From IMG/VR virus record IMGVR_UViG_3300043081_000027: a stretch of DNA of 64,000 nt. One strand, 5' to 3'. The notes beneath the pieces are model-generated. The model searched no databases, had not been told where the DNA came from, and saw only the letters and a program-made list of their open reading frames with translations. The DNA is from a virus. This document shows, one piece after another, positions 5,701 to 53,765 of this stretch. A program made the translations under genes and the position numbers. Each line of letters begins with the position of its first letter. The stretch's first letter is position 1.

Positions 5701-8700
5701 TTAGCAAGAAAATATGATTTAAATTATCCCACTACTTAGCTATTACTTAAAGGGGTTATTAATGAAATTAAATTAGAGGATGATACGACTTTAGAAAGAC
5801 AAAAGATTATAGACAAAATAATCAAAAGTCGTAATGATGATTTATAGGATCGAGCCATTGAAGCTGCTAAAAATCTAATTAAAGAATTACAATTAAGAGC
5901 GCAACTTAAAGGTGATTCAATTGATATTGTGGAAAATTCATTCTATAATATTGATAAAGGTCACTTTGTTCCTAATTATGGTTTAGTTGATCAACTATAC
6001 CGTTGGGGTAAAATTGATTAGGTTGCGGCAGAAAGTATGTTACCTACTGGATTACTGGCAACTTCACATAGTTATGGTGCAGAAGCTGGTAAAGAGCATT
6101 TGAAATTCTTTAAAGCTAAATCATTCCAAGTTGTATCTGATATACTTCAAGAAAATGGATATATCAACTTATTTGCACCTGATGGCAAAAGAATTCCTGG
6201 AGCATTACGTAAGTTAGGAAACAAGGAAATTGCGGGGACATTAGATGCGAAAAACGGTTTAGGAAAATGGTCACAAGGTGGAAAACTAGCTTTAGCAGCT
6301 ATTCGTTATAGAGAACTTTATGAAGGTGGTATTAAAGAGAAAGCACAACAAATTACAGACCTTAATCAATTAAGTGATATAGGACTTGTTTAGCAAGCTT
6401 TTAAATTTATTAAGTATCTTAATTCTTATAAGTACGGTGTTGTAACGGGACTTACGATAGACGAAGCGGCAAAAAGTATTAGTGATAACTATTCTACTAT
6501 GCGGGAATGCTATAGTTTAGATGATTATTTACGTAATCCTAAATTTAGTTTACTGACTTTAGAGAATGCTATTAATGACTACTTTAAATGGTAGGATATT
6601 GAACGTGGTATAGCTAATTACAATTCTGATAATGGGAATGTAGATATGTATGCTGAGGTTCGCAAAAATGTTTTCGAGAACGATAAAATAGAAATCGAGA
6701 AACAGTACAATAAGCGAATTGAGGATAGCAATACTAAATATGATAGTAATATTGCCAGCATAGATGAACAAATGGGGCTTATTACTAGTGTTGAAGAGTC
6801 TGAACGATCCGATGCTGAAAAAGAACGTCTTGTCGATTTAATTGCGGAAAAAGAGCAGTTAAAAGAAGCTAAAGCCGAAGCCGAAAAGAAATTAAAAGAA
6901 TCACTTAAAGAAACAATTACTAAAGTAACTGACCGTTATAACAAAGTATTAGAGCAAGTTCCTGCTTACATAAAAGCTGTTTAGGCAAATCCTAATTTTG
7001 CCCATACCGCTGAAATAGTAATTAATCCTGATTTGGAAAAGTATAATGCTTTTAGTTTTCTGTATGGTCAAGAATATACTATAGCTACAGTAGGAACGCA
7101 CTTAAACCATCCTGGTATGAAAAATAAGGATGATTTAAAAGCTTTTGAAAGTCTTTCTTGGGCACAGCAAGTAAAACGTAATGTATCTTTAACCGCTGCT
7201 AAACATTTATATTCTTTAAACTCTTTAAATGGTTTTGGAACTTATTGTAAAATTGCACAGATAGTTTCTGAATCTGATGCAGTTTATAATCTTACAGGAG
7301 CATAGGATGAAATGCTTAATGATGATGGTGCTAACTACACTAATGGTGTTACTCACCGTCTTGAAAATTATTCATTAGGTAGTGACGCTGTAGGAGTTGA
7401 TAAAAAGAACTTTTTCCACATGGAAGATGGTGCTTCTGGTACTGGATTTATTGGCAAGAATGCAACTTTCGTAGGTACGAATTTACGTATCAGAAACTCT
7501 AAGGCCTATAGATTATAGAATTTCCAAATGCTTCGAGGAGCTGTAGGTTACTTAAATCCTTACTTAACTAATGGTGGTTTAAATATTACAGAAAGCTTTG
7601 AAACTTATTACGATAGTAATACTAGAAAGTGGGAGTTCTCTAAAATGAACTACGAGGACTTTGATTATAAAATTCCCACGTCTTATAAGCCACATATTTA
7701 GTATGAAGTTTAGCTTGAGGATGGTTCTTGGACTGCAGCTAATGGGCTATTACAAGGTTATAATGTTCGTGTAATAGGAGATTCTATTAAATTTAAGGAT
7801 GGTTATACAACTTTTAAATTCTCTAATGTATCTTAGATTGATTCTACTGGAGAGGTTAAATCATTGCCTAATGCGGCAAGCTTTAATTTTAGAGTTAAAT
7901 TGGATAATGTACACGATATTTGGGAATTTTTTGGTGGTGCTTATTCTGGAAAAGCTAAAGAACAGGTTATAAATGGAGATTTGATATTAACAATGGATGA
8001 AAATAGTTATGATGAATCTTCATTTGATTTAACTACATGGGTTGTAAATAATGTAGGAAAACGAAGAGAAGGTGTTGGTATGGATGTTAAAGTAGAATCA
8101 CAAACGCAAGTAGACCAATACTTAAAAGATTCTATGATACATTATTTATCTTCCATTGAAACTATTAAATAGGGTTAGAATAAAATCAATAAGCGTTCTG
8201 ATATACGAAATGAAAACTATATTCCATTATTTATGGAAATGGATATGCACGATGCAGGAGTGCAATTAAATGCAGAACACCATTCCGATGATTCAGTTCT
8301 TTCCATGATGACTTAGGTTTTAAATGCCTTAGGAGCTAGAGGTTATACTTCTTAGGAAGCAGATAAAACTTATCAAGCTTTGCAAGGTCTTACTAATGCT
8401 GCATTGTAGGAATACATTGATTATTCAAGAGCTGGTGATTCGCCACAAAAACGTCAACACTTAGAGAATTTCATAGCACATATAATTGGTGATACTATTC
8501 AAGCTAATAGTACTTTAGATGAAGGTACTTTAGCTGGTGCTTTAATGCACCAAGCATAGAAGTTATTAAGTCGTAATAAGAACTTTAAATTTGAAGAAGT
8601 TCGTTAGTACTTACCTATTGATGATCCAGCCTTACTTAGAAATATGATTTCTAAATTAGCTTCTGGGTTAACAAAAAGATGTATTCGTGTTAAATTCCCA

Positions 8701-11700: not shown

Positions 11701-14520
11701 AACATGCTTCTTAATGAGGGTACTCATGAAGAGTTACAAGACTTGCTTGCACATCGTAATATTGCTGGAAAGGATATTCATTTACTTGCAAATGTTTACC
11801 AGCAGAATAAACATAATTTCACTACTCGTGAAATTTAGGAAGCTCTTGATGCTGTTGACCAAACTCTCGATGCTTACTTGGAATATTCTGGATTCTTGTC
11901 ATTGTCTACCGACAATGCTAAAGACCCTACACTTGCCAAAATTAACGCTGGTGAGAAATTATTAGGTTTATACTTATGTGGTGTAGCAGTAGGTATTGAT
12001 GTTCCCAGCTTAGTTAAAATATTAACATCTAAAGCAGCCGCAGAATCTGTAAAATTATTAACTAGTAATATGTTTAATAATGCACAAGGATTCTTTGATG
12101 TTAATGCTTTAGATCGGTATCTAGCATCTGGCCCAATTTAGGTGGTAGATGAGTTTAATGTTAGTATGCTTAACTAGCCAGTTCTTAAAGCATGGATAAT
12201 AAGTGTTTGGAATAGAGAACACAAAAAGGCAGATTCCCAATTAAGTGCTAGTAGTAAAATAGGTAGAAAACACCTTTCTCATGCCATACAAAAGGATGGA
12301 TGGCAAAAGTTTAATGACGCTTTAGTAGATTCTCTTAAAAATATTACAAAGGAAGTACATAAAGGTGATGATGCTTTAGAGGTAGCTGAATAGTTAGAAA
12401 ATGGTAATCAAAATAATGATTCATCAGAAGTAAAGGAAGAGAGTGCAACTACTGAAAAAGCAAAAGAGAATCTTTGGGCTGTTTACAATCTTCTGAAAAA
12501 GGTTCAAACTTAGGTAAGAGATTTTGCTAAATCCTAGGAAACTATTAAAGATTGTTGGGTATAGTTACCTAATGGTAGATGGGTTCAAGCTTGGAGTCAA
12601 ATTAGACGTTTAAATTAGGTAGCAAATGAATTTAAAAGATTCTCTCAAGTAGCTAAATTAAATTAGCAACTTCCTAATGCTATGGATGAGCAACTTGCTT
12701 GGATTCGTAAATTTGAAAAAGGTATTGCATCACGAATTTCTGAAATAAGTAAGTAGGAGTTGGACAATCACCCCGAAATGTAGCAAGCTATAGACGAATT
12801 AGAATAGCTAAATAAAGAGTTATATGCTTAGATGATGCAATAGGGAATACTTTCAGGAGAATAGTTTGACCGTTTGAAATATTCCGTAAGTTTGAGTAAA
12901 TTTGTAAATGATGCAGAATACCAAAAAAAGATATGTAGTATCTATGGTAAGTTAAAGTATGTTGTAAATGTTTATGATGCAATGGCTAAACTTCCACATT
13001 ACTTAGGATATGCTAGAACTCTTGCAGCACTTAGTGAAACTATGGGAGAAACATCTAAAATATACCAAACTGTAAATTACATTTCTCAAAATGTTATAAA
13101 GAGTCTTGGTGATGAATAGCATCGTAAGAAAGAACTTACTCGTTTAATAGACTGGGTTAATGATTGTCTTACTAATGATTTCTTGTTAAATCGAGGAACT
13201 AATCTTACAATTAAGTCTGGATCTAAGTATTATGAAAAAAGTTATGGTCTTACTACTGGTATAGACCCTACTTTAAAAACAGTTGGTGAGGGTGCTACTT
13301 CCACCATACAATTAGGAACTTTGGAAGGCAATATGTCATTTAAATATATAATGGAAAATGAAGTATTGCCGGATTTAAAAGAGAAGTATCCTGCATTTGA
13401 TTTAATAAGAGACTTAAATCAAATTAAGTTTGATAAAACTAATGATAGAAATACATTAGTAAAAATGGCAACTAAGTCTACTATGCTTCCTAGATCTGAA
13501 CAAGAAATACAAACTTTAGCTAAGTACAAGGAAGATCTCATAACTTTATCTAATATTAGGTTATCTCAATTTAACGGAGAAATTAATTTAGTAGATGCTT
13601 TATTTGCTTACAATTTAATTGTAAATAAAGGTAAGGTATCTGGAAATTCTCTTACTAATTTGTTTGAGGATTATGCAATGAGTTAGGGTAAGTAGTAGAC
13701 TGATGGGTAGCCTTCTGCTTTTATAGAAGATTATTATAATTCAAGACGAGTTCCAAACGAAAGCTTACTTGAAGAATTAGCATTTTCTGATAACTAGGTA
13801 CAGAACTTCTTAATGGCTACAGCATAGTATGATCCTACTTATAAATCTAAAGCAGAGTATATCTACATACGAAATCCTTTTACTAGATAGTATGTACTAG
13901 CTCAGAAAATAAACAAAGAGGAGATTAGAGCGCAATACACTGATGAGGATTTAGGTGTAGAAGATTACGGAATTGATGATGTTGCCGAAGATTATATTAA
14001 TGAGGATTATTCTGATTATGATGACGATGATTACGAAGGTTCAGACTCATCAAATTATAAGAATCAGCGTGCTTGGGAGGCAGGAGTTGAAGTATAGGGT
14101 TATAAAATACTTGGAGTTTCTTCTACTGTGGACGCTTTTAATAATTTTGCAACAGCAATTTATGGAAAGTAGGAAGTCGAAAAAGTCTTTGATAATATAG
14201 AAATTAGTGAGGATGGTAAATAGATAAAATCTATTACTTATAAGTCTGGTGATGATCCAGACGCTCGCACTCTTACGTATGATGATTTATTTGAAGGTAC
14301 TTCGGATATAAGATCTGAAAGACGTAAAGCCTTAGAAAAGGAATTAGGAATCAAAGCAAAAGATACTCCAGAATCTAAGCTAGAAAAAGTACTTATTAAT
14401 TTTGGTTTAGTAACTAAAGATGCTGATGGTAACATACAACTAGTTTAGAATACTAATGCAAACCCTACAGTAACTTTAGGAGATGTTATAAAAATGATTA
14501 AAACAGGTAAACCATGCTAA
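2755..14520 (+). CDS. Giant virion-type RNA polymerase (about 3921 codons), TAG read as sense (probably Gln)
   Basis: ATG at 2755 in frame 1; every frame-1 track fragment from 3640 to 13686 and onward to TAA at 14518-14520 is in the same frame. In the stretches traced codon by codon (2755-4920, 12121-12900, 13681-14520) only TAG occurs in-frame. Contains the RNAP beta-prime-like DPBB catalytic signature AARIPAQCMQSF...QGSDYDIDKVS (nt about 10200-10335; compare beta-prime NRQPSLHRMSIQAF...NADFDGDQMAVH and the QDE-1/phi14:2 gp66-type DYDGD motif). Confidence 0.7.
10204..10335 (+). other. Catalytic double-psi beta-barrel motif of the giant RNAP (RIPAQCMQSF ... DYDID metal-binding aspartate triad)
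   Basis: Read directly from the frame-1 translation; DYDID is encoded at 10318-10332, just after an in-frame TAG at 10297-10299. Confidence 0.6.
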
Positions 14521-14521
14521 T

Positions 14522-15607
14522 ATGGCAGGATGTATGAATAAAAATGATAGAGGATACCAGTCGTTAAGTAGAATGGCTGGTATCCCTTCTATGGTATTAG
14601 ACGTTTATTGTCAAAAGTATTTAGATTCATTTAATAGATTACCTAACTTAGATGAATTACCCCTTGTGGATTCATCTAAGCATTTAAATGAATCTTTAAA
14701 AACAAAATAGATTGGAGATTCAAGTTTTGCTAGTAATGAAGCTATACAAAAAACTACAGGAGCACAGTCCTTAGGAGAAGCGCAAGTAAAGCTTAATAAT
14801 ACGTATAGAGATTTACAAGTAAACTTAGTGGAAGTTACAGATAAATCATCTTTACTTGAAGTATAGCATAGACCTAGTGTATTTAAAGAACTTAATCAAG
14901 AATATACAGGGGAAAATTTTGATGTTCAATCTGATACTGACAAACGTGTAGTTCTGCGAAATATGCTTGGTAAACTAAAAGATTTTTATGGCATTAAAAT
15001 TAATGAAGTTACGTCTAAACAATTATGTGAAGGTGACTTTGCTAATATAATACCAGATGCTAAAACCGCTAAAGCCTTTATTTATAATAACGAAATATAT
15101 ATAAATACGGATATTGCAGATATAGATGCACCTATACATGAATTAATGCACATATTTTTAGGTGGTATGCGCTATACTAATCCGACTATATATTTTAATT
15201 TAGTGTCTAAAGCATAGCAGTTTAAGAATTTACAAAGTCTAAGTAAGGTATATCAAGATAGAACTCAATCTGATTTTTTAGAAGAAGCTTTTGTTTCAGA
15301 GTTTTCTAAGCTTTGCGCTGGTATGCACAGTGAATTTGATTCTTGGTCTGCTGAGGATCTTAACCCGTTATTATATGAAGTCCGTAGAAATATGGACTCA
15401 GCTTTAATGGGTAATAAAAGTGTTAATAGTATTGATCCTAATGAACTTTTTAAAGCAAGTTTCTTAGATATTGCTATGCGCACAAAATCTCCTGAATTAA
15501 ATAGAAGCGATTTTAGTATTCTAAATCTCGCTGAATTACATAGACAGAATGCGAATATTAAATCTAAGATGCTAAAAGATGGTGACTTAGTTGAAAAATG
15601 TGATTAA
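14522..15607 (+). CDS. HExxH-motif protein (putative zinc metallopeptidase), 361 codons, TAG-recoded
   Basis: Frame 2; track fragments 14522..14710, 14963..15217 and 15323..15607 are joined by in-frame TAG; ends with TAA. Motif APIHELMHIFLGG at about 15137-15151. Starts 1 nt after the TAA of the RNAP gene (TAAtATG). Confidence 0.5.
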
Positions 15608-15609
15608 GT

Positions 15610-18600
15610 ATGGCTTGTAAATTTATATATAAAGGCAATAGAGTTTTTAATTCTGAAATTGCACTTGATGAGTTTCTTATTAATAGTAAGAAGTATTAGG
15701 AAGGTTCTGATATTGTATTTGAGTTAAGTACAATTTAGAAACAGCGGGGTGCTAGAATTAAACAACGTGGTAAGGCAGCTGATAAGTTAATTACTCATAA
15801 TCCTGTAATATTTGATACAGATTTATTCGAGGATTATGAAATGAATGAGTTCGGTTCTGATAACTATGGCGTTACATTCGCTCTTAAATAGTATGTAGAT
15901 GCGGAAGGTCACCCACTTTTTCCTATATTTAATCTGGAAAACTACTGGCAACATAAAATGCCAGACTGGTAGAAACAAGAATATTGGACTAAAGGTTATT
16001 AGGATGATACAGGTGAAGTACATAAATGTGATAAGTACGAGTATCAAGCTGTTTGGGGAGATAAAGATCCTAATGATATTACAGCAGCTCCTACTAATGA
16101 CTAGTTGGAAGTTGGTAAAAAAGTAATGGAGAGAGTTTGGCCTATGCAAGGTTTTATGGGTACTGGTGTACATAGAATGATTGCAGCTTATTGGAAATGC
16201 TAGACAGCTCATAAAGGTAGGGCTAGTGCTACACAAGTTAAAGCAGAAATGACCAAAGCTCTAGATTTTCAATTAATAGGAAGTGGTAATAACAATCCTT
16301 TATTATCAGAATTTAAAGGCATTAAATACTCAGATTTTCTTTCTGATAAAGTAGATGATACTTACTCAAAATGTAGAGCTATTCACGATGAACTTAATTC
16401 AAAGTTTTTAACAGATGAGTAGCGTAAATCTGGTATGGAATTGTATTTCTTACCTGAAACCGCCATTACTACAGAAGTTGATGACTTTGAACATCCCGAT
16501 AAGAAGAGAAACTTATTGGGTAATGTAGACTTATTTGTAATTGATCCGTCTGGTAACATTCACATTATTGACTACAAAACTTCACCTAAAGAATATAATG
16601 AGTACAACTCAGCTAAAATTAGAACATTCTACTATTAGTTAGCTACCTATAGACGTTTGACAGAGCGTATGGGTTTTGCATTAGACCATAATTCTAATGT
16701 GTATGTAATACCTATTAAGTTTGAAAACTTCTAGATTGATCCAGAACAAACTGATGTTACAAAGCTTTGTAAATTTGATAATCTTAAATTACGTGAGGGA
16801 AGTTCTGGTATTTTAGAGCGTTTGGAAGTTAAGGCAAGTCTTAGTTCTACAGGTGTAAACTCCGATACTATTAATAGTAACTTGGATAAAATCATTCCTA
16901 TTAAGAATACTAAAATCATGGCTGATGGTGATATTCTGGATGATGTTAAAACTTAGATGAAAGCCTGGTTTCCAAGTTTCGGTAAGTACAATGAAATTAC
17001 TAAAGAGTATGTTGTCAAGATGCTTAAACGTAAAGGTCGTGATAAGATAAATCCGAACAGTTTGAAATATACTTATAAGGTTGGTAAGAAAACTGTAATT
17101 ACTGATAGCTTTGAAGCTCTTGTAGATGGGGTATACTAGGAATATTAGAAGATGGAAGAACACGTTATGGATAGAACTTAGGGTGTTAAAACCATCTTAC
17201 AAGAAGCTATAAATAATAAGGAAAATGTAGTCATTGATACAGGATATGCTCATAGCTCTCGTAAATTTGCAAGAGAAAGTTATCTAGAAAATTTGTTAAA
17301 CCCTTATACTACTGGAGAATATGAAATCCTTGATGATTATAATGAAGCCACAGAACGTCTTGGAATAATATTACTTAAAAATATACATACCAATAAAATT
17401 GATGTATTAGTAGTAGATACTAGTAAACATGCTTTTGATGATGAAATAGCACTAGGTGGTACTGAGAATAGTCCAGGACGTAATAAGACTTTAACAGGAA
17501 CTTTTATTTCTGATGTTACTGCAAGAAATAAACCTAATGAGCTAGTACTTGATAGTACTTATGGTAATATTAGAATGATGGAAGTTATGTAGGCTTTAAA
17601 TAATATGTCTGCTTTATTTAATAGTGATTCCGCAGGAATGGAATCTACATTAGGAGAGATTAAAATGTTTAATCAATTTCATAATGATGGTTGGACAGCT
17701 TCTAATGAACAACTTCTTTACAACTTTAAAGAATTACATAAGGCTAATAAAACAGAAGACTAGATTCATTTAGGTAAGGATATAAAAATGTGTAGTTAGC
17801 TCGATCTTATTAAGCATAGGTGTAATGAGATTATGGCAAATCCAGAACATGATAGAAAATGGAATGGTATTCAAACTGCTATAGATAATACACAAAACTT
17901 TACAGTTAATCCTATTATACTTAAATCTCAGCTAATCGGATTAGCACATGACATTGAAGAGAAATTTAAGTTAAAGAATGATACTAATGCTAGAAACTTG
18001 GAAGGTGATAAAGCAGAAGCATATAGTTTCTTAGCAAACTTATATTCTGCTATTGCAGAAATTGATGGTATTCATTTTAAATAGCAAATTAAAGACCATT
18101 CTGCTTTCTTAAATTAGTCTGGTGTAAAAAGAATTTTCAAAGAGGGTTGGTCTGGAAATAGTCTTGATAATCCAGGAATGCTTGATTCTGACACCCTTAA
18201 TAAGATGGGTCAACGTCTTAATGAAGCCTACTAGCTGACTCGTGACGAGATCCAAAATATTTCAAAGAAGATTTATACATTGAGTAAAAAATTGAAGGAG
18301 GAAAACAACTTCGGATATTTGAAATCTCGAACTATCGGAAATGAAGCATCTATTTACAAAAATTTATATGATGATACTTATGAAGATGATTTAGTATTTA
18401 AAAACCCATTTGATTCTCACGGAGTAACATTGTCTGAAACTGAAAAGGAGTTTTTAAAGCAATCATTGCTTTTAATCAATCATAATCGTTATGGAGATGT
18501 AAATACTATGGATGACCTAGAATTAGCTATTATGCAGGATCCATATAAATATCTCCGAGTACCATTAACTGAGGGTACTAATGCTTCTAAAGTTGCATAT

Positions 18601-20574
18601 AAAGGTATGTGGGAAACCATTAAGGAGAAGTTTAAAAACCTTATCCCTACAAAACTTAATATGCAAAGAATGTTTAAAGGTTTGCTGGTGGATGAAACTT
18701 TATTGGATAACGAGGATGTTCGTAATAAGTATCAAAATAAGGATGCGGAACTTTGGGAAATGAATACTGCATTTGATGCTGGTGAAACTGAATAGGCTAG
18801 AAAATCCATGTTAGCTAATTATGGTAAGAATTATTTTGAGCATAATCTAGAATTACTTACCATGAAACATGCTTATGCTTATACATTAAAGAATAATATT
18901 AATAAAATATTTCCACTATTTAAAGCATGTGCTTTACAACTAGAAATGGGTGGTGCTATAATGAATACTCGTTTCGCAGAAGACATTTAGTACTTACATG
19001 ACTTTATTACTAATAAAGTACTTAATATGTCTATCTAGGATCCTAAATGGAGAACTGCTTAGTACGTATGTGGTAACTTAATGTCTGGAGCTTCTAAACT
19101 AGCATTAGCTTTTAACCCAAAACAATTTTATCAAGCTATTGATGGTTTATGGAAAGATATTTCTTTAGTGATAAGACAAAATGAATACGATCAAGCTTTC
19201 AGTCAGTAGAATATGAAAGATTCTTTCTGGTGGGTTTACAGAGATTTAACCCATAATTGGGGTGACGGTAAATCATTGGCTTAGGTTCTTAATGAATAGT
19301 ATGGTATTAATGATATGGATATGAATTCCTACATTGATAAAACTAAACCTAATCAATTTGGTATCTTTAATTTGGATAATGTAATGTTCCATTTCGCGTC
19401 ACGTCCAGACTTCTATAATAGAATGACTATTTTTGGAGCTCAGATGAGACATGATGGTTGCTTTGAAGCACACGACGAAGACGGTACATATCATTGGGAA
19501 AAAGACTTGCGCTATAATATCTATGCTAAATATTGTAAGGATGAAAGTGCTGTCCCAGCTTCTTTAAAAGCTGAATATAATAAGCAGAAAGCTCGTTATA
19601 AAGCTGCGGCTACACAATTTCAAGCAGAGGGTGCTAAATTTAAGAATTCTGATGGTGAAATGGAGGATTTTGTTGTAGACCTCTCTAATCCAAAGCCATT
19701 ACCTAGAGCGTACACAGTTAAAGAAGCTGAAAGTATTAAATCTTTAGCAGATTTAATTTATGGATATTATTCTCATGAAAAGAAATCTATGATTCAATCA
19801 ACGACTGCTGGAGCTTTATTTATGCAAATGAATACATTCTGGTCTTCTAAGAAAAACTAGTGGTTTTTACCAGGAGGAGTACGTATGTAGGGTACATATG
19901 AACATTATTCTGAAACTTAGGAAGATGGAACTAAAAAGTATTATTACCAAGATGAGAATGGTAATATTACAGATTAGGAAACGGATACACCATTCATGGT
20001 TTGGAAGGGTCGTTATTAGGAAGGAATCATGGTAACATTAGCTAATATTTTTAATGATACTTTCTATGGTGATGAAACTGGTAAGAAAGGCTTAGGTAAT
20101 GCTATTGATAAGTATTGGAACGCAACTGATGAAAACCTTCGTAATGCTTATAGAAATAATTTAAAGTAGTTACTATATGATTTATTAATGTTTCTATTCT
20201 TAGGAATGCTTATTGCACCTGCTTTAGAGAATGCTGCGAAAGCTCATGCTAAAGAAGTGGGTAATGGTGACTTAGGTGATGCTATGATAAATAATGCTAC
20301 GGTGAATTTAACTTCTATGTTATCTACATCTACAGATGATTTTAACGCACTTAAATCTATTTTTGGTAGAGGTGTACAATGGACACCATTCTCTATATCT
20401 ACACTTACAAACTCTTATTAGAGAGTAAGTTCAGCTGTATCAGGTAATAGTGATTGGTATGATGCTATTGTTAAAATGTCCGCAGCAGGAAGAACATAGG
20501 AGAATATGTTTGATTACATAAAAATAAATACACTCGGTCGAAAGATTGGAGACAATGGAGTAGTAAAAGAGGAT
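15610..20574 (+). CDS. Large late protein (1654 codons) with an internal RecB-family (Cas4-like) PD-(D/E)xK nuclease domain, TAG-recoded
   Basis: Frame 1 from ATG at 15610 to TGA at 20572-20574, only TAG in-frame where traced (15610 to about 17830 codon by codon; beyond that only the 3' end of each track fragment was checked). Nuclease motifs GNVDLFVIDPSGNIHIIDYKTS followed by FYY[TAG]LATY give the family signature QhxxY only if TAG=Q (nt about 16440-16700). A hydrophobic segment lies near the C-terminus. Confidence 0.6.
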
Positions 20575-20581
20575 TGAAAAA

Positions 20582-20627
20582 AAAATGGGCGACAACTTAG
20601 GAAAAATCCTAAGCTGCCGCCCATTTT
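20582..20627. terminator. Bidirectional intrinsic terminator at the convergence of the late (+) and early (-) modules
   Basis: Inverted repeat aaaatgggcgacaacttagg / cctaagctgccgcccatttt with a 6-nt loop. Its two mismatches are A/C on the + transcript but become G-U wobbles on the - transcript, where the hairpin is followed by nine U; the + strand has tttt after the stem. Confidence 0.55.
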
Positions 20628-20638
20628 AATATTTAAAA

Positions 20639-21256
20639 TTACGTTAACAAGTCAAAGTTGTTAATCAAGTCATTTCTTAATAGAAATTTATCTAATTTAG
20701 AAATGCTTGCATTTAATTCTGTTGCTTTTACAGAAAGATCCTCTAAAGAACCATCATTTTTTACAATAAATGAAAAACCTTTATAATCATCTAATTCAGT
20801 TTCACTTGTATGTTTTTGCTCACTCTCGGAACCGTCTGAAAAATCGCGATTAACCCGGATTACAAGCCCACCAGCCGATTCAATTCCTTCGACCTCACTC
20901 TTGTACCTTACGTCAGAAATAAAGGCTATATCAGGCTGCTGTGAAGCAATTTCTCCAAACAGCCTTTTAACCCAAAAATTAGTTCCAAAAGTTTCTCTAA
21001 ATGCTGTTCCAACCTTTTGTAACAACACTCGATTAGTAGCGTCCCAAAAAAGATTAAAAGACTTTTTAAATTCTCTACTATCGAATAAACTAGGCTCCAC
21101 TCCAAAAGCTTCGCCCGCAATGTTCTTTAAGACTCTAGCAAAACTATACTTCTTACATATTATTTCAGGGTGAGTCACTGAAAAGGTTCCTATTAACATA
21201 TCAGCAAGAGTATCCTTACCTGCATTCATTTTTCCAGAAATACCTATAATCAACAT
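20639..21256 (-). CDS. Deoxynucleoside monophosphate kinase (T4 Dnk/gp1-like)
   Basis: P-loop GISGKMNAGKDTLAD and C-terminal NDGSLEDL resemble T4 Dnk (SGVKRSGKDTTAD ... NDGSLEEL). Confidence 0.65.
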   Translation of the reverse strand: MLIIGISGKMNAGKDTLADMLIGTFSVTHPEIICKKYSFARVLKNIAGEAFGVEPSLFDSREFKKSFNLFWDATNRVLLQKVGTAFRETFGTNFWVKRLFGEIASQQPDIAFISDVRYKSEVEGIESAGGLVIRVNRDFSDGSESEQKHTSETELDDYKGFSFIVKNDGSLEDLSVKATELNASISKLDKFLLRNDLINNFDLLT

Positions 21257-34611: not shown

Positions 34612-34815
34612 TTACCAATCATAACTTTTAATATTTTTATTTACTTTATGGTACTTAAAATTATGGTTAGCAATTATACATTCTAATAAATAATTTTCAA
34701 CATCTCCATCTCTAAGATAAAAATTAATAATATTAAATATATAATCTTTATTTTTAGAGTTGAAATGTTGACCTGTAGAATGTATAAATTGATAAAAGAA
34801 ATCTTCTGCCGTCAT
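34612..34815 (-). CDS. hypothetical protein
   Basis: ORF. Confidence 0.35.
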   Translation of the reverse strand: MTAEDFFYQFIHSTGQHFNSKNKDYIFNIINFYLRDGDVENYLLECIIANHNFKYHKVNKNIKSYDW

Positions 34816-35000
34816 TTATCCCCAGTATGTCCGAAACCTCCAGCACCTCTTGTAGTTTCATCAAGTGAATTTACAGGAACCCACTGAATCTTAGAAACTT
34901 GCTCTAAAGTAATTTGAGCTATACGATCTCCATGACGTACTACAAAATTATTATCAGGATCAGTATTTATTAAAATAACTCCAATTTCACCGCGATAATC
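34812..35000 (-). CDS. dut: dUTPase, exon 2 (C-terminal half: DYRGE ... RIAQI ... TTRGAGGFGHTG)
   Basis: Carries dUTPase motifs 4 and 5; in the same frame as exon 1. Confidence 0.75.
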   Translation of the reverse strand, partial: DYRGEIGVILINTDPDNNFVVRHGDRIAQITLEQVSKIQWVPVNSLDETTRGAGGFGHTGDK

Positions 35001-36092
35001 CATTTATGTTATCCTAAAGACTCTTTATTCTTTAGTTCTGCAGTTTCATTAGTTATATCTGCAGGTCGGACTATATCTTCTCCAACAATATTTATAATTT
35101 GTTGGAGCAGGGCACTCGTGGTAGCATTACTATCCTCGCTAAGGACTCGGCTACTAGTCTCTGAACCTTCAAGAGTATTACTACTCAAGCTTGGCTGCTG
35201 ATTGTCCACCTCTGGAGTTTCCAGCAATTCACCCTGTTTTAAGACGCCAATTATCGCTTTATATTTTTCAGATCGTTCATGTGCTTTAGTATTATGGTAT
35301 GTAGTATGTTCAGAACGTGTTAGTATTTGAAGATTTTCTAAACGATTGTCTGTTTTTATTTCATTTATATGATGCACATCATATTCATCTTTTAGAACAA
35401 TCCATCCATTAACATTCTCAAAATACTTAGGATCAAACTTATCATGATTTCTTTCAATTACTAATCTATGCTGTCTAACTCTAGATCCTTGAACACTTTT
35501 ATCACAGGGTTTTGGATGTCCTGGACAATACTCTAACACGTAACCTAAATTAGAAATTGTTTCTTTACCCTTAAAACTTGCATTTTTATCACCAGTAAGT
35601 CCATATTGATGATTATTTTCTCCTAAATATGTAGTTTCTCTTAATTTGTTACTACATTCTTTACTACAACAAATTTGCGTTTTAACTTTTTTTATTCTAC
35701 TAGGTTTCGCATAGAATTGGTTACCGCAAATAGGGCAAGTACAATTTAACTCAGTCTTTTTTCTAAATAAAGCTGAGCAAGTAGTGCTACAACATTGATA
35801 GGTCTTTGCACGACTCGGAGTAACGTATTCTATTTTACCACAATAAGCACATATTACTTCTATTTTATCTACAGCATTCTTTTCATTCGGTTTTCCTTTA
35901 CTGTGTTCATCCGAACATTGTTTACAACAATATTTTCGATGAGCACTTTTCTTTCCTAAGAAAGTTTTTCCACAATTTAAACAAATATATTCTACCATAC
36001 TAATTTTTTTAATATGGTTAAATATAGACAATTTTATTGGAATAACCTAATAAAAATAATAAATTGTGTAGTAACTGTTAATATATAATTTT
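35001..36092 (-). mobile_element. Probable group I intron (1092 nt) splitting the dUTPase gene inside motif 3, carrying an HNH homing-endonuclease ORF
   Basis: Exon 1 ends ...PGCIDA and exon 2 begins DYRGE, reconstructing G-x-ID-x-DYRG. The upstream exon ends with U, the insert ends with G (omega-G), and in-frame read-through from exon 1 hits TAA after 5 codons. Confidence 0.6.
35009..36031 (-). CDS. HNH homing endonuclease with N-terminal zinc-ribbon repeats (intron-encoded)
   Basis: Four CxxC...CC(S/K) ribbons, then HNH core DVHHINEIKTDNRLENLQILTRSEH. Confidence 0.75.
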   Translation of the reverse strand: MSIFNHIKKISMVEYICLNCGKTFLGKKSAHRKYCCKQCSDEHSKGKPNEKNAVDKIEVICAYCGKIEYVTPSRAKTYQCCSTTCSALFRKKTELNCTCPICGNQFYAKPSRIKKVKTQICCSKECSNKLRETTYLGENNHQYGLTGDKNASFKGKETISNLGYVLEYCPGHPKPCDKSVQGSRVRQHRLVIERNHDKFDPKYFENVNGWIVLKDEYDVHHINEIKTDNRLENLQILTRSEHTTYHNTKAHERSEKYKAIIGVLKQGELLETPEVDNQQPSLSSNTLEGSETSSRVLSEDSNATTSALLQQIINIVGEDIVRPADITNETAELKNKESLG

Positions 36093-36422
36093 AGCGTCTA
36101 TACAACCTGGCGTGTTAAGAACAGTTATACCGTGTTTAAGAGCTAATCCGCTACGAGGTCTTACTTTTATTTCATAACCTTCTGGAATTGCAACGAATAA
36201 ACCAGTAGGAATAAGTGCTCTACCTCCGGGACGGATAACCACAGCACCACCTTCTGTATAAAATTGATTATCTAAGATACAATCAACTCCTTTAACATTA
36301 AGTATTCCATGAATATCTGCTCGCACATCCATACCAGCAGAACCATCGGTTTCATAACTAGGAAGTGGATTATTCCATTGTTCATCATAATATTGCTTTT
36401 GCTTTACTTTTACTTCTACCAT
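36093..36422 (-). CDS. dut: dUTPase, exon 1 (N-terminal half: motifs 1-3 up to GCIDA)
   Basis: [18 protein letters not shown] and PGCIDA; track ORF 36078..36422 runs 5 codons into the intron before TAA. Confidence 0.75.
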
Positions 36423-45831: not shown

Positions 45832-46620
45832 TTATACACCTAGGATTCGTCCAACAAGAAGAGTCTTTTCATAACGAGTAAAGCAATCTTTACTCCAGTT
45901 ATCGGTTATTTGCTGAGTAAAGGCATTGTACACATTCAGCATACTACAGTCATGATTACCTGTAAAATAATCACTATCCTCATTTACAAATAACTCCTTA
46001 TAAGCACTTAATACCATAGTTGTAGCAACCTTCACTTTACCATAACCAGAGGTATAATCCATACCCATAGAGTTACGAATCCAACGTCCCAAACTTTCAT
46101 TTATATTTAAATCTGAAGCTTCAAACGTAGTGTCATTAAGCATTCTTAGTGTATTACTGATTGTCTCAGTACGTTCTAGCAATCGCTTAATAGGTGTAAA
46201 ATCAAGAGCTGTTTCAGGTTCAATTTCTTGAATATCCAAACCACTAGGAGAGAATACACACAAATTAGTACAAGCAGAGCGTTCTGCACCACTGTACAGT
46301 TTACAAATAGGCTTACGTACATCCAATCCATATACCATACCAACTACTTGTGTATGACCTTCAAAAGCATACTCATTAGGGAGAACAGCTTCTATATTAA
46401 CACGATTAAATGTTAAATCGTCAGTGACTACATTACCAGAATCAGTAAGAGTTATTTGTTCTGGAGTTTTTACTTTAACGGTAAAATTATTGGTATACTT
46501 AGAAAGTCTATCAATAAAAGGCTCCAAGTAATCAGCAGTCTTAAAATAGTCTTTCTCCTTAATTCTAGTTGCCTTACCTTGAAGAATTTCCTCTAAGGTA
46601 AATACATGTTCGTTTGTCAT
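45832..46620 (-). CDS. hypothetical protein
   Basis: 262-aa ORF. Confidence 0.45.
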   Translation of the reverse strand: MTNEHVFTLEEILQGKATRIKEKDYFKTADYLEPFIDRLSKYTNNFTVKVKTPEQITLTDSGNVVTDDLTFNRVNIEAVLPNEYAFEGHTQVVGMVYGLDVRKPICKLYSGAERSACTNLCVFSPSGLDIQEIEPETALDFTPIKRLLERTETISNTLRMLNDTTFEASDLNINESLGRWIRNSMGMDYTSGYGKVKVATTMVLSAYKELFVNEDSDYFTGNHDCSMLNVYNAFTQQITDNWSKDCFTRYEKTLLVGRILGV

Positions 46621-46626
46621 AATTCT

Positions 46627-48189
46627 TTAAAAGTTTTGAAATTCACCACGTAAAATGTTATCTCCTTGAATAATATCATAAGACACTCCATAAGAGTTTC
46701 TAGAGAAATTAAATGCACTGTAATCACTTGCACCATACAAACTCAATACATTTCTATAATCGAATTTAAAGCAAGAAGAGTAAGCACTTGAATGTAAGTC
46801 GCCTTTAATAATGTGAACATTCTTACTTTGTTCATTATTATTATCAAGAACTTCATACAAGAAGCCTCTAGACTTATCATCCAAATTAAGAGGAAGACCT
46901 CTTTTCATAAATTTCTGATCTTTGCCATGAGTTAAATAGAAACTATGAACTCCTTCTTCAAATTTACCTAAGAAAGTATCAAACAGTACAGTTTCATACC
47001 CAAGAGAATTTAAAGCAGCAAACAATGCTTTAGTAGCAACATATTCAAATGCGCCAGTATGATTACCACATCTTACTGAATAAAAGCGAATACATGGAGC
47101 TACTTCAAGCTTCTTTAATTGCTCTACAAACTTCATCATTACTGAAATATAGACATTAGCTTGTTCAAAACCATCCATATTCTCAGGCATGTAATGATCA
47201 AGTCTATTAGTCATATTAGCAGGCCCACAACAATCCATCATATCACCCATTAAGCAAACATTTAATCTGTCTACTTTACCAAGTGTTTCAAGTCTTGCTG
47301 CAACTTGATGAAGTCTGCGATAAACTTCATTCATTCCATAATTCTTATTTTCATCATATAATGTACCAGATTCTACTGCTGCACCTACGTGCATATCAGC
47401 TAAGTAAAGATTGAGACTTCTACCATAAGAAGTTTCTTTCTCAACTGCAGGGCAATCTGGAATATTAAGAACTTTGAATGAAAGATTCTCTTGTTTAGTA
47501 AGTTGCTTCTTTAATTCTATATTCTCTTTAGCATACTTCTTACAAAGATTACTTGTATCTCGTATAGCATCCTCTTCTGCTTTACGCATAAAGTCATTCT
47601 CCTTCTCACGACTTTGCATAGCGCGTAATTCATCAATGCTTAATTCCTCAATCATATGAGGAGGGAATGGAGAACTTGCTTTATAAATACCAAAAGCAGA
47701 AAGAATTCTTTTAAAATCAACTAAAGATAAATCAGGGAAGTGTCGTACAATTTCACGTTGTGTTAGTGATACTCCGTAATATGAATATAATCTATATACA
47801 GTAAACATCTCCTCTCTACTAAGTTTACCAATAAGAGGAGTTTTGTTCTTACGATATATCTTATAAGTATAATACACTATTTTACCATCGGAGTTACGTT
47901 CATAACCAACTTCGGTGGCATTTAGTGATTCTACTTCTTCTACAGAGACCGGTTCTTCTGACTCAATCTTATCATATTGTTCATTCTTATTAACTATAGA
48001 ATTATATAAGTTAACTACTTCGTTATAAGATTCTGTAGAGTGATCCATAGTCCTGCGGTATTCGTGCATACGATCATAGATTGACTGTTTCTTAATATCG
48101 TTAGCAGAGCAATATGCAGAAATAGACAGACCACTATCTTTAATAGCTTTAAGAGTTTCAATAAATGATAAAATTGTTTTTTCTTTCAT
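46627..48189 (-). CDS. Calcineurin-like metallophosphoesterase with an approximately 250-aa N-terminal domain of unknown function
   Basis: MPP motifs in order: LADMHVG (DxH), MGDMMD (GDxxD), CGNHTG (GNH), GDLHS. Confidence 0.6.
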   Translation of the reverse strand: MKEKTILSFIETLKAIKDSGLSISAYCSANDIKKQSIYDRMHEYRRTMDHSTESYNEVVNLYNSIVNKNEQYDKIESEEPVSVEEVESLNATEVGYERNSDGKIVYYTYKIYRKNKTPLIGKLSREEMFTVYRLYSYYGVSLTQREIVRHFPDLSLVDFKRILSAFGIYKASSPFPPHMIEELSIDELRAMQSREKENDFMRKAEEDAIRDTSNLCKKYAKENIELKKQLTKQENLSFKVLNIPDCPAVEKETSYGRSLNLYLADMHVGAAVESGTLYDENKNYGMNEVYRRLHQVAARLETLGKVDRLNVCLMGDMMDCCGPANMTNRLDHYMPENMDGFEQANVYISVMMKFVEQLKKLEVAPCIRFYSVRCGNHTGAFEYVATKALFAALNSLGYETVLFDTFLGKFEEGVHSFYLTHGKDQKFMKRGLPLNLDDKSRGFLYEVLDNNNEQSKNVHIIKGDLHSSAYSSCFKFDYRNVLSLYGASDYSAFNFSRNSYGVSYDIIQGDNILRGEFQNF

Positions 48190-50385: not shown

Positions 50386-50900
50386 ATTAACGCTCTAAAG
50401 TTAGGTAGTATATCTGCCTTGAATAACTCATAGGCATCTTCTATCTCATACTTATCAAGTGAATACACCCTTCCAATAGGCCCCCAATCTTCATTAGATT
50501 CAGAATCCATAAGAAGACAGGGAACTCCAGCTAAATTCATAGCTATGAAATTAGATACAGAATCGTCTACAAAGACATCAACTCTACCTTTAATTACATC
50601 AGCTTTGTTTTTTCGCTGGCTACATATTTGATATACAGGAGCTTCTGGGTAAGAATGCTCTTGTAACCATTGCTTTGTCCACGGTTTCGGATTAACTCGC
50701 TTACTGCAATACAAAGCTACATCAAAATTAGGTTTATGTTTTTCTGGCAAACCTAACCAAAAATCTTTGTCTTTAATCAAAACTCTTTGTACGTGTTTTG
50801 TAATTACACTATCACTAGCAGGCATACCAAATCTTTCGATATAGCATCTCCACCAGTAATTACATGTATCATCACAATCTAATCCAATGCGTAACTTCAT
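50382..50900 (-). CDS. HAD-superfamily phosphatase, 5'(3')-deoxyribonucleotidase-like
   Basis: Motif I GLDCDDT (DxDxT) and motif IV VFVDDS. Confidence 0.55.
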   Translation of the reverse strand: MKLRIGLDCDDTCNYWWRCYIERFGMPASDSVITKHVQRVLIKDKDFWLGLPEKHKPNFDVALYCSKRVNPKPWTKQWLQEHSYPEAPVYQICSQRKNKADVIKGRVDVFVDDSVSNFIAMNLAGVPCLLMDSESNEDWGPIGRVYSLDKYEIEDAYELFKADILPNFRALI

Positions 50901-50917
50901 AATTTCGTCTACAATGG

Positions 50918-51205
50918 CTAATTAACTTCTATAACTTTAAAATTCTTATTAATATCAGTTTCTACTTCTTTATCGTATGGATATACGTAAAAAGCGTGCT
51001 GCAAATCTTCCCAACAGGATTCATATTCTAATTGAAATCCTTCTTTTGTAGCCCACTTAGAACGTTTTTTATCACGTCTGCACATATCCAAATAATGCTG
51101 AAATTCCTCCTCGAAAGTTAGAACCTCAGCATTTTGTATTTTAGGTTTACACCTATGCAGTACTAATAATTTATGTTCCTTACGATAAGTTTCATCAAAG
51201 TTCAT
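50918..51205 (-). CDS. hypothetical protein
   Basis: ORF. Confidence 0.4.
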   Translation of the reverse strand: MNFDETYRKEHKLLVLHRCKPKIQNAEVLTFEEEFQHYLDMCRRDKKRSKWATKEGFQLEYESCWEDLQHAFYVYPYDKEVETDINKNFKVIEVN

Positions 51206-52220
51206 GTTTTAACAATTGATAAAATAATGTATCAGGTAATACAACTAACTAATGATTTAAATCGTTTTCTACACTTTGCTAAATTAAAATTTCAACATCT
51301 TTTAAATCGTTTATAATATAAGGTATTTCTAACAGTTTAATTTTATTATCTTTGCAGAATTTTCTAATATAATTGTCTCGAATTTGCTAATCTTCTAATT
51401 TTAATTCTCCTCCAAACTATTTAACTGGCACATAATGCTAAATCCCATTATATTCTATAAATATATTACAGTCTGGTAAATAAAAATCAACATAACAATA
51501 TCCAGATACACGAATATCTTTTGGAGCTTGAATTCTATACTGCGAAACATAATTAATATTTAAGTTTTTTAAAACTGTTTCCACTAAAAATTCACCCTTA
51601 GACTAATTACATTTAGGACACCTTGCATGATTATGTAGGTGGTCATGAGCATTCTAAGTAATTTCTCCATGTATAGGGCAAATATATGTAATTTTGTTCT
51701 CAATTCCAGTATATATTGTATTAGAATAATTATAATCAGGATTTAATTTCTGACATCTAGAAATAAATTCTTCTTGCGACATTAATAATTTTTCAGATAT
51801 ACTTTTTCTACCACATTTTGAACATCCTTTCCCAGACAAATGATTTGCAGGATCCTGTAAAAATTCACCATGTTCAGGACATATTATTATACCTTTAGTT
51901 CTGCAATTAATATAATTAAATTTACTATAATCATACTTATTATTATGAACTGCATTAGCATCTTTTATAAAACTATCTATATCTTTAGCTCTATCATTAC
52001 TTAGTTTCTAAAATTTACATTTTGGGCAACCCTAGCCTTTTGTATGAGCATCCGGTGTTTGCCAAAATTCTCCATGTTCATTACCATTAACGTCAAGTTC
52101 ATGACAAATTATACACACTTTATCTTTTTTAGTATGATACTCAGCTTTAGAATAATCATATTTATTACCATGAGCTTCCTAAGCCTACTCTACAAATTCA
52201 GCGGTTGTTAACTTTCTCAT
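51195..52220 (-). CDS. TAG-recoded endonuclease-like gene (about 341 codons): three tandem Zn-ribbon modules (KYDYS...HGEF...GCPKC) plus a C-terminal DUF559/Vsr-like PD-(D/E)xK endonuclease domain
   Basis: A single - strand frame from ATG (52220) to TGA (51197-51195) is interrupted 11 times by TAG only, with no TAA/TGA. Track ORF 51654..51839 is an internal fragment. C-terminal domain NIFIEYNGI[Q]HYVPVK[Q]FGGELKLED[Q]QIRDNYIRKFCKDNKIKLLEIPY. Confidence 0.55.
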
Positions 52221-52746
52221 TTTTTAATAAATTGTATAAAACCTCTTTGGGCAATATTACATAATCAGTAGATATAGAATTAACTTTTTGTTTCCTCCAA
52301 AATACAACTAATGGTCTATCCTTTAAAGGGCAACCTTCAGTAATGGTTTCAATATTTGGAGTATTTAAAGTTGCTTTACATTGAATATAAAATGGAAGTT
52401 TATCTTCAGTTTCAGCAATATCTACCTTAGAGTTATCTAAATTTCTATCTTGGGATCTAGAAGATACTAATCCTGCATAACCTAATTCGGTTAATTCTTT
52501 GATAATATCTAGTTCAAATCTATTTCCTTTAGATTTACTCTTTTTTGCTTGATAAGCCCTAAATGTAGTGTTATCAACCCATTTACAAGAAATTTTATCT
52601 TTCTTACCTGTAGAACCTTCTCTAGATTTATTACATCTAATTTTAATAGATGCCTCTGACAATCCAGATTCAGTGCTTGCAGCTACTAAATTGGGATAAG
52701 TTTTTACAACACCATCTTTATAGGTAATAATTACACTGGTATTCAA
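52198..52746 (-). CDS. Putative endonuclease: NUMOD1-like HTH plus Hjc/VRR-NUC-like PD-(D/E)xK resolvase domain
   Basis: N-terminal YPNLVAASTESGLSEASIKIRC resembles the I-TevI-type NUMOD1 motif; C-terminal KGNRFELDIIKELTELGYAG...SKVDIAE...LPFYIQCKAT resembles archaeal Hjc (GSAFERELV...PDLIA...IEVK). Confidence 0.5.
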   Translation of the reverse strand: MNTSVIITYKDGVVKTYPNLVAASTESGLSEASIKIRCNKSREGSTGKKDKISCKWVDNTTFRAYQAKKSKSKGNRFELDIIKELTELGYAGLVSSRSQDRNLDNSKVDIAETEDKLPFYIQCKATLNTPNIETITEGCPLKDRPLVVFWRKQKVNSISTDYVILPKEVLYNLLKNEKVNNR

Positions 52747-53765
52747 TTCTTTCTATGATTTCTTAGCCATTTTATAAATTGAGTTATTAAATCAAGTGTG
52801 AGTTGTCGTCCTCTATTCTTATACAAGTCACTAATATCTTTTGCTTCATACTTTCTAGGAATCCATGTATAAATAAGTTCTGGATGTGCCTGCTTAATTT
52901 TTCGCATACCAGTCAAACCTGCTAAATCGTTATCATAAAGTACTACAATATGCTTGAAACGCTTTTTTAATTGTTCCAATACTGTATCAGAAATAAAGAG
53001 ATTTTCACTATTAGGAGCAATAGCATTAATCCCAAACTCATACAACAACATGCAGTCCTTCATAGACTTCGTAATTACTAGCAGATTACCTTTCTTAGGA
53101 AGCATTTCAAAACCCTGTATTTTCTTAGCAGGCCAATTAGTAAGAAATCTAATACCACTACTTTTATTTTGTGGATAATAGATTCTCCATAATTCTTTAC
53201 CGTCTAACTTGCCTCCATAATATCCAAACACTCTCATAGAAGAAGTAACAATACTAAATAAATTATCATTAAGGAATACAGACTTACAAGAAAACACTCT
53301 AAACTTATTTAGAGTCTTCTTAGTAATACCATATTGTAACCACCAATCTAATTCATCTTTAGTATAGTCCTTTATCTCTACTTGAATTTTAGACTTACCT
53401 GCATCTTCAAATTTTTTAGTATTTGTCGTGCGGATTCCAGGGTTTACTTGTAAGTGCTTAAACGACTTTAAGCCTAAGTCATTAGCAATGGTACACAGAG
53501 CTTGATAAAATGTCAAGTCATGTATAGCCATTACTAATGAAAAGCAACTATAAAAATCTCCTGTTGCAAAGTCATGTAAGTATAACTCACCTTTACTATT
53601 GCGATAAAAACCACATGTAGGTTTATTATCATTTCTTAGTCTACTTCGTATCAGTTTCTTACTAATATTAGGTATTCCTAAGTAATAACAGAATATTTCT
53701 TCCTCAGTAACTTTTGATAAGATAAATTCCTTAGTTATAGATTCTCCAAATGTAAATTCAAACAT
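52743..53765 (-). CDS. DNA primase (TOPRIM domain, DnaG-like)
   Basis: TOPRIM elements LVITKSMKD ... IVVLYDNDLAGLTG (E ... DxD). Confidence 0.55.
   Translation of the reverse strand: MFEFTFGESITKEFILSKVTEEEIFCYYLGIPNISKKLIRSRLRNDNKPTCGFYRNSKGELYLHDFATGDFYSCFSLVMAIHDLTFYQALCTIANDLGLKSFKHLQVNPGIRTTNTKKFEDAGKSKIQVEIKDYTKDELDWWLQYGITKKTLNKFRVFSCKSVFLNDNLFSIVTSSMRVFGYYGGKLDGKELWRIYYPQNKSSGIRFLTNWPAKKIQGFEMLPKKGNLLVITKSMKDCMLLYEFGINAIAPNSENLFISDTVLEQLKKRFKHIVVLYDNDLAGLTGMRKIKQAHPELIYTWIPRKYEAKDISDLYKNRGRQLTLDLITQFIKWLRNHRKN

Follow-up and report, generated by a model that had tools for sequence, protein, structure and literature searches.

That a reassigned stop codon can gate a selfish endonuclease has been proposed before, for a different group of phages. 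Agate phages, which read TGA as tryptophan, have an early gene whose group I intron encodes a TGA-rich endonuclease, and Borges et al. (bioRxiv 10.1101/2021.08.26.457843; Nat Microbiol 2022) propose that the in-frame stops delay this endonuclease until late infection. In phage T4 the genes for I-TevI, segB and mobE are part of early or middle transcripts but are silenced early and translated late; the block consists of RNA hairpins that hide the ribosome-binding site, together with late promoters (PMC2988022). Here we describe a gene in a 64,000-nucleotide stretch of viral DNA, IMG/VR virus record IMGVR_UViG_3300043081_000027, which was analysed whole and which we call the window. The gene is a single open reading frame (ORF), at positions 51195-52220 of the minus strand, that contains 11 in-frame TAG codons. 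It is probably an intact, free-standing, Vsr-like homing endonuclease gene that can be translated in full only once TAG is decoded as glutamine.

The parallel with the Agate case is close: each is a homing endonuclease gene set amid standard-code early genes and loaded with the stop codon that its phage has reassigned. The two differ, however. Here TAG is reassigned to glutamine in a crAss-like phage related to Steigviridae, and the gene is free-standing and Vsr-like; in Agate phages TGA is reassigned to tryptophan and the endonuclease is intron-encoded. Moreover, the preference for the reassigned stop over its synonyms is not significant here, where a single genome is counted. The locus also resembles the T4 endonucleases in that the gene lies inside an early unit and its production is proposed to be late, though the block would be 11 in-frame TAGs in place of hairpins and late promoters. 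The enzyme itself is closest in kind to I-Bth0305I and the EDxHD nucleases, including Hef-type phage endonucleases (PMC3239194), which have a Vsr-like catalytic fold, are phage-borne and are mobile. Asp, Glu, His and Asp residues are conserved in the present family as well, and may correspond to the composite EDxHD motif with its Mg-binding Asp, His general base and second Asp. Whereas I-Bth0305I is intron-encoded with N-terminal NUMOD/helix-turn-helix (HTH) motifs (PMC3239194), the present gene is free-standing and encodes three Cys-His-Cys-Cys (CHCC) zinc fingers. Finally, as in other TAG-recoded Crassvirales, TAG is a sense codon in the late genes and is avoided in the replication genes (PMC7886860; Borges et al.). 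In those descriptions the whole replication module follows the standard code; here it harbours one mobile TAG-rich gene, and such genes recur at five or more sites in related phages.

Two features define the interrupted frame:

51195-52220, minus strand: ORF of a free-standing homing endonuclease, 341 codons before the TGA stop, 11 of them TAG and read as Gln; assigned from phrog_559, phrog_9084 and the ratio of nonsynonymous to synonymous substitution rates (dN/dS)
52185-52187, minus strand: first in-frame TAG, codon 12, at which the standard code would terminate after 11 residues

The frame runs from ATG at 52220 to TGA at 51197-51195, giving 341 sense codons, and a TAA lies two codons 5' of the ATG. 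TAG occupies codons 12, 14, 63, 71, 189, 206, 261, 268, 278, 314 and 324 (highest coordinates 52187, 52181, 52034, 52010, 51656, 51605, 51440, 51419, 51389, 51281 and 51251). There is no in-frame TAA and no in-frame TGA. TAA and TGA together make up 6.4% of codons in this module (mean of the three minus-strand frames), and from that background the chance of 341 codons without either is about 1.5e-10. A standard-code ORF list breaks the gene into fragments, among them a 61-amino-acid (aa) piece at 51654-51839. The codon count and the ORF list therefore bear out the original prediction in its outline, namely the frame from 52220 to 51195, the 11 TAGs with no other stop, and the 61-aa fragment; that a full-length product needs TAG read-through follows directly from the sequence.

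TAG is probably decoded as glutamine in this phage. The alignment column at codon 189 is Gln in 61 of 79 homologues and that at codon 261, which supplies the Gln of the ...EYNGxQH... active-site motif, is Gln in 72 of 79. The peptide across the TAG sites, read in this way, includes ...EYNGIQHYVPVK.... The closest orthologue, in the related locus L001 (related loci are given here as L numbers), is 81% identical in amino acids and has 10 of the 11 TAGs in common; between orthologues TAG swaps with CAG twice and with CAA once. With a dN/dS of 0.18-0.22 against L001, the gene is, on comparative grounds, intact and under purifying selection.

What does the gene encode? Translated with TAG as Gln, the protein matches phrog_559 over residues 1-314 (E 1.1e-65) and phrog_9084, labelled 'homing endonuclease' (E 6e-27). 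It has 7753 homologues at E<=1e-20, a family that carries the Pfam domains DUF4379 (a treble-clef zinc finger) and DUF723; the database protein P0001, which is identical to the endonuclease, and its own homologues carry PF05265 and PF14311. Searched as a single sequence, all its Pfam matches fell under the gathering cut-offs (DUF723, 14.9 vs 20.9 bits; DUF4379, 15.4 vs 24.5 bits). Conserved residues were read from a 36-sequence alignment and give the following domains:

52017-52172, minus strand: zinc-finger module 1, residues 17-68, with C39, H49, C65 and C68; weak DUF4379 match; predicted local distance difference test score (pLDDT) >90
51813-51947, minus strand: zinc-finger module 2, residues 92-136, with C114, H117, C133 and C136; from alignment and model
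51609-51743, minus strand: zinc-finger module 3, residues 160-204, with C181, H184, C201 and C204; weak DUF723 match at residues 168-204
51267-51599, minus strand: Vsr-like PD-(D/E)XK nuclease domain, residues ~208-318, with D245, E256, Q261 (TAG-encoded), H262 and D282 nearly invariant

The C-H-C-C ligands of all three repeats are invariant in the alignment, which agrees with the three tandem zinc modules first noticed in the sequence, and the three fingers are the putative DNA-binding part of the protein. In the nuclease domain D245, E256, Q261, H262 and D282 are kept in at least 90% of the 36 sequences. Sequence searches of the PDB, with the single protein and with a family profile, gave nothing significant, so the fold assignment relies on structure prediction. 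In a Foldseek search, an AlphaFold2 model (mean pLDDT 89.8) matched the Vsr endonuclease (1vsr and 1cw0_A) with probability 1.0, as well as the catalytic domain of I-Bth0305I (3r3p_B; probability 1.0, template-modelling (TM) score 0.74 on the target, 21% identity). PvuRts1I/AbaSI were matched as well, and the D..E..H pattern of the domain aligns to the Vsr-like domain of AbaSI. In the model, then, the C-terminal domain is a Vsr-like nuclease of the EDxHD or I-Bth0305I type, the fold that had been proposed from the sequence. PHROG 559 carries the label HNH, and an HNH endonuclease was considered and rejected: the protein has no HNH Pfam match and its nuclease domain folds like Vsr, so the label appears to be a misnomer for the family. 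The N-terminal 205 residues consist of the three CHCC repeats and lack the NUMOD/HTH region of the I-Bth0305I prototype. Because zinc fingers stand in its place, the protein is best named as a zinc-finger subfamily of Vsr-like endonucleases.

The distribution of the gene is that of a mobile element. The order p237-primase-PD-(D/E)XK-[endonuclease]-small gene-p172-exonuclease is conserved, and the endonuclease occupies this site in five lineages: the window, L001, L002 (= L081), L121 and L123 (81, 79, 57 and 44% identity for the four relatives). It is absent from 38 syntenic relatives, L083-L120. Comparison of orthologous loci, which the original prediction had called for, thus finds the gene variably present; it also finds the TAGs conserved in part, since 10 of 11 are common to L001 though L121 and L123 have 3 and 2. 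The region compares with its relatives as follows:

51250-52800, minus strand: block of 83-95% nucleotide (nt) identity with L001, boundaries good to ~75 nt; a co-conversion or transfer tract
52198-52746, minus strand: upstream PD-(D/E)XK (RusA-like/PDDEXK_15) nuclease gene, whose last 7 codons overlap the endonuclease start; part of the L001 identity block
50918-51205, minus strand: downstream 95-aa ORF that ends in TAG, without a homologue in related loci

The block spans the PD-(D/E)XK gene and the endonuclease core. Its flanks are 33-69% identical overall, with 50-69% upstream and 33-45% just downstream. The proteins follow suit: the PD-(D/E)XK protein is 92% identical to that of L001 in amino acids, the primase, p172 and exonuclease 47-54%. 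Such a localised block is what homing that co-converts a flanking gene would be expected to leave, a signature and not a demonstration, and the free-standing endonucleases of T4 undergo intronless homing with co-conversion of flanking genes (PMC2988022). Patchy presence, a co-conversion-like block and purifying selection together favour the option, raised at the outset, of a selfish endonuclease.

An intron-encoded endonuclease can be set aside. No Rfam match at E<=1 was found within 50500-53000, and the gene is a separate ORF that overlaps both its neighbours out of frame. Nor are the neighbours the exons of one split gene, for they are the PD-(D/E)XK gene and an unrelated orphan ORF. The overlaps, reported from the start as short, are real: the ORF shares 23 nt with the gene upstream, which stops at 52198, and 11 nt with the one downstream, which starts at 51205. 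The orphan, the ORF at 50918-51205, has no homologue in any related locus. At its position relatives carry a different gene of ~75-80 aa (M..YI.P.C...W....ARSF....DIEE), and this is the region's most divergent stretch (33-45% nt identity to L001). A near-identity DNA search with 5.3 kilobases (kb) against GenBank phages gave no match, and a metagenome scan gave no relative above 46%.

The 3' overlap is more than mere packing, since the last 17 codons of the endonuclease look like a relic of its neighbour's 3' end:

51198-51248, minus strand: endonuclease tail, residues 325-341, LVVLPDTLFYQLLKHEL; apparent displaced relic of the PD-(D/E)XK 3' end, in frame behind TAG codon 324
52219-52266, minus strand: functional copy of the duplicated PD-(D/E)XK 3' end, YVILPKEVLYNLLKNE; pairs with the relic at 51198-51248

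The tail resembles the C-terminus of the upstream PD-(D/E)XK protein (YVILPKEVLYNLLKNE...), and BLAST finds the self-match too. A profile built from PD-(D/E)XK C-termini was run over the complete six-frame translations of four loci; self-matches apart, it scored best with the endonuclease tails of the window (E 0.0067), L001 (E 0.015) and L081 (E 0.08). The tails in L121 (..MDFFYTLLE) and L123 (..IDFFYELL) resemble the C-terminus in endonuclease-free phages (..KDFFYELIK). The high-identity block with L001 stops at the start of the tail, and the tail evolves faster than the core, with a dN/dS of 0.59. The element would thus sit inside the PD-(D/E)XK 3' end, supplying a replacement C-terminus that overlaps its own start and leaving an in-frame relic behind. 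Similar arrangements occur in fungal mitochondria. The PD-(D/E)XK gene of endonuclease carriers has a further peculiarity, an extra N-terminal domain of ~69 aa (window 52540-52746; also in L001, L081, L082, L121 and L123). The domain (..ITYKDG..Y.S..EAS..TGLSE.AIKIRCNKS..) looks NUMOD/HTH-like; Pfam gave no significant match. The 38 endonuclease-free relatives are without it, and their PD-(D/E)XK match begins at residue 70.

The family recurs in related phages. TAG-rich copies, with 7-13 TAGs and no other stops, are found in TAG-free surroundings at five or more sites, including, besides the site just described, these elsewhere in the same module:

L003/L124: TAG-rich copy near homologues of window 31-34 kb
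L027/L029/L051/L146: TAG-rich copy between homologues of 46627-48189 and 45832-46620
L028: TAG-rich copy beside a Sak4 homologue
L082, 4238-4981: TAG-rich copy between the primase and PD-(D/E)XK genes; 247 aa, 7 TAG

The L082 copy marks a second insertion site within 1 kb, as it lies between primase and PD-(D/E)XK gene. The L082 PD-(D/E)XK protein is 79% identical to that of the window, and its endonuclease is a different member of the same family. Most members of the family, at ~150 other loci, have no in-frame stop.

Other mobile elements accompany these genes. The window's dUTPase gene (34812-36422, minus strand) is split into an N-terminal part at 36078-36422 and a C-terminal part at 34812-35003 (DYRGEIGVIL...RGxGGFGHTG). 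It contains a group I intron (Rfam RF00028, 35038-35323, 70.3 bits) with an intron-borne HNH endonuclease ORF at 35009-36031, of 340 aa with zinc-ribbon repeats. L121 has an ORF with a faint LAGLIDADG match and one TAG in its replication module (15542-16627), and an NrdD gene with an intein (19399-21041). The L121 elements suggest that phages of this group are heavily laden with mobile elements.

Judged by its gene content and codon usage, the window phage is a TAG-recoded crAss-like phage related to Steigviridae. The window is ~32% G+C and switches strand near 20.6 kb. Its plus-strand part (1-20577) comprises four stop-to-stop ORFs of 905, 3922, 369 and 1657 codons, with 15, 79, 3 and 35 in-frame TAGs, so that TAG supplies 132 of 331 inferred Gln codons (40%) in these giant ORFs. 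The minus-strand module holds 57 other ORFs with no internal TAG vs 368 CAA and CAG codons. Its products are NrdD, family A DNA polymerase (PolA), Dda-like and other helicases, RNA ligase, primase, a Sak4-like annealing protein and exonucleases, and the closest GenBank polymerases are those of Kolpuevirus (Crassvirales, Steigviridae; 47.5%), IAS virus and other crAss-like phages. The same two-code layout has been described for Beta, Delta and Zeta crAss-like phages (PMC7886860; Borges et al. 10.1101/2021.08.26.457843). The plus-strand giant ORFs gave no PHROG matches, and the label 'late' for this block is taken from the literature (PMC7886860; Borges et al.).

Neither block is quite uniform. 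The first view of the other early genes as TAG-free is right inside the ORFs but not at their termini: four replication-module ORFs on the minus strand end in TAG, at 50918, 49342, 39113 and 36673. The next TAA or TGA lies 7, 2, 43 and 9 codons further on, respectively. A code switch would lengthen the C-termini of these four proteins, the Dda-like helicase by 43 residues. On the plus strand, the window ORF at 14498-15607 has just 3 TAGs (17% of its Gln codons). In L122 (3-9068), a distant relative, the homologue of this ORF and a neighbouring 1330-codon ORF have no TAG, and the next giant ORF has 16. These counts mean that TAG use is uneven inside the 'late' block.

We can outline how such a gene would work. 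When carrier and endonuclease-free phages infect together, the enzyme would cleave the allele that lacks the endonuclease, and repair from the endonuclease-carrying genome would copy the gene and the adjacent PD-(D/E)XK gene, as in intronless homing. Repair would use, as its right-hand homology arm, the relic 3' end that follows the endonuclease. Because the first TAG is codon 12, host-code ribosomes would stop there and make only an 11-residue peptide. The full enzyme would appear when TAG comes to mean Gln, in the phase of TAG-rich late-gene translation, and the TAG block may in this way bring the gene a selective advantage.

Several of our observations weigh against this reading, and rival explanations draw on them. 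A pseudogene in decay, with only TAG stops by chance, would account for 11 breaks in the standard code. It would also account for the L002 copy, which has a +1 frameshift from an extra G in the G run just before the catalytic Gln-His (L081 ~6296-6302, AATGGGGGTGTAG vs AATGGGATTTAG); the frameshift is consistent with a decaying copy or with an assembly error. TAG codon 268 (51419) is awkward too, for it falls in a column filled by Phe or Tyr in the majority of homologues, and L001 has TAT there. A single TAT to TAG mutation would give this change from Tyr to Gln, at a conserved aromatic site adjoining the active-site motif. However, decay is hard to reconcile with 341 codons free of TAA and TGA (chance ~1.5e-10), a dN/dS of ~0.2, the retention of all zinc ligands and of the near-invariant nuclease residues, and TAGs that are common to L001 at 10 of 11 positions, swap with CAA or CAG and fall on invariant Gln columns. 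The pseudogene reading is strongly disfavoured, and we think it highly improbable. A domesticated nuclease serving the phage, for example by excluding or out-competing co-infecting relatives or by degrading host DNA, is a better rival, albeit an unlikely one. Purifying selection would be expected of it, and occupation of the same site in five lineages, with endonuclease identities of 44-81% that are similar to or above those of the flanks, suggests long residence; in T4, free-standing endonucleases are known to cause marker exclusion (PMC2988022). Against domestication stand the absence of the gene from 38 syntenic relatives, a frameshift in one copy, the localised identity block typical of homing and the presence of the family at many different sites. 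Nothing ties the gene to host DNA degradation, and nothing supports the original suggestion of a built-in switch that would couple such a nuclease to the recoding machinery.

The alternative we take most seriously concerns the TAGs and not the gene. They could be a passive by-product: in a selfish gene unneeded early, TAG mutations would go unpurged and codon usage would drift to the late-gene level. We consider such drift possible but not probable, and view with similar reserve its corollary, that late-only translation would be a consequence, with no selected timing device. TAG makes up 11 of the 20 Gln codons of the endonuclease (55%) vs 132 of 331 in the late ORFs (40%), which is not a significant difference (Fisher p=0.24), so a preference for TAG beyond late-gene usage is unsupported in this single genome. 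Orthologues at this one site differ greatly in their number of TAGs (13, 11, 3 and 2, the last two being L121 and L123). None of the 13 Gln codons of the HNH intron endonuclease, which belongs to the same module, is TAG (P=0.0013 if its usage were like that of the late genes). Furthermore, recoded copies are often each other's nearest relatives, so their N-terminal TAGs may be inherited rather than convergent. It is these four points—TAG share, HNH ORF, L121 and L123, possible shared ancestry—that make passive tolerance a serious alternative, and the first three also leave unproven the claim that the gene is 'deliberately dependent' on the suppressor. Drift does not readily explain, however, why, of 10 recoded copies, 9 (the endonuclease and 8 others) have their first TAG at codon 12-17, where Lys or Arg is the usual residue in standard-code homologues. 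If the lineages are independent, the chances of so early a first TAG in each would multiply to ~0.0014. Stop-codon preference is significant in the analogous endonuclease family of Borges et al. (10.1101/2021.08.26.457843). The tenth copy, L123, has its first TAG at codon 114; this and the possible shared ancestry weaken the case for a universal N-terminal TAG 'gate'.

The timing of expression carries its own doubts. No tRNA, and hence no suppressor tRNA, was found in the 64-kb window, which is part of a genome, or in 11 related loci, so both the agent and the timing of TAG decoding are taken from the literature. Some recoded Crassvirales have been reported without identified suppressors. A promoter scan performed at chance level (23 promoter-like sites vs 19.9±5.3 in shuffled sequence) and a terminator scan gave 0 terminators; with no such signal above chance, co-transcription with the early genes is assumed from the overlaps. 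Of the proposal of a selfish endonuclease timed for late expression, the selfish part stands up well, while the late timing, with its suppressor resting on the literature, should be read as conditional.

We favour, then, an intact selfish endonuclease gene whose full translation awaits the decoding of TAG, and this reading has several consequences. For annotation, standard-code or two-block gene callers shred such genes, and the 61-aa fragment is an example. For mobile-element biology, the locus offers a tidy insertion architecture, with a duplicated host-gene 3' end as homology arm, and a sharply bounded exchange tract between phages otherwise only ~50% identical. We also raise, tentatively, the idea that a zinc-finger/Vsr-like endonuclease lineage may have specialised on TAG-recoded Crassvirales, using the phage code switch as its timing device. 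If so, the gene would be silenced by an amber codon among its first 12-17 codons in whatever early operon it enters, until the suppressor appears. Recoding would also be a barrier confining these selfish genes to recoded phages, as they would be untranslatable in standard-code relatives.

The finding carries the idea of Borges et al., which concerned one TGA-recoded clade and an intron-borne gene, over to TAG-recoded Crassvirales and to a gene that is free-standing. A single code-dependent gene in a standard-code operon could report the timing of the code switch in crAss-like phages. Its value is that of a clear case, recurring at several sites in TAG-recoded Crassvirales and open to experiment.

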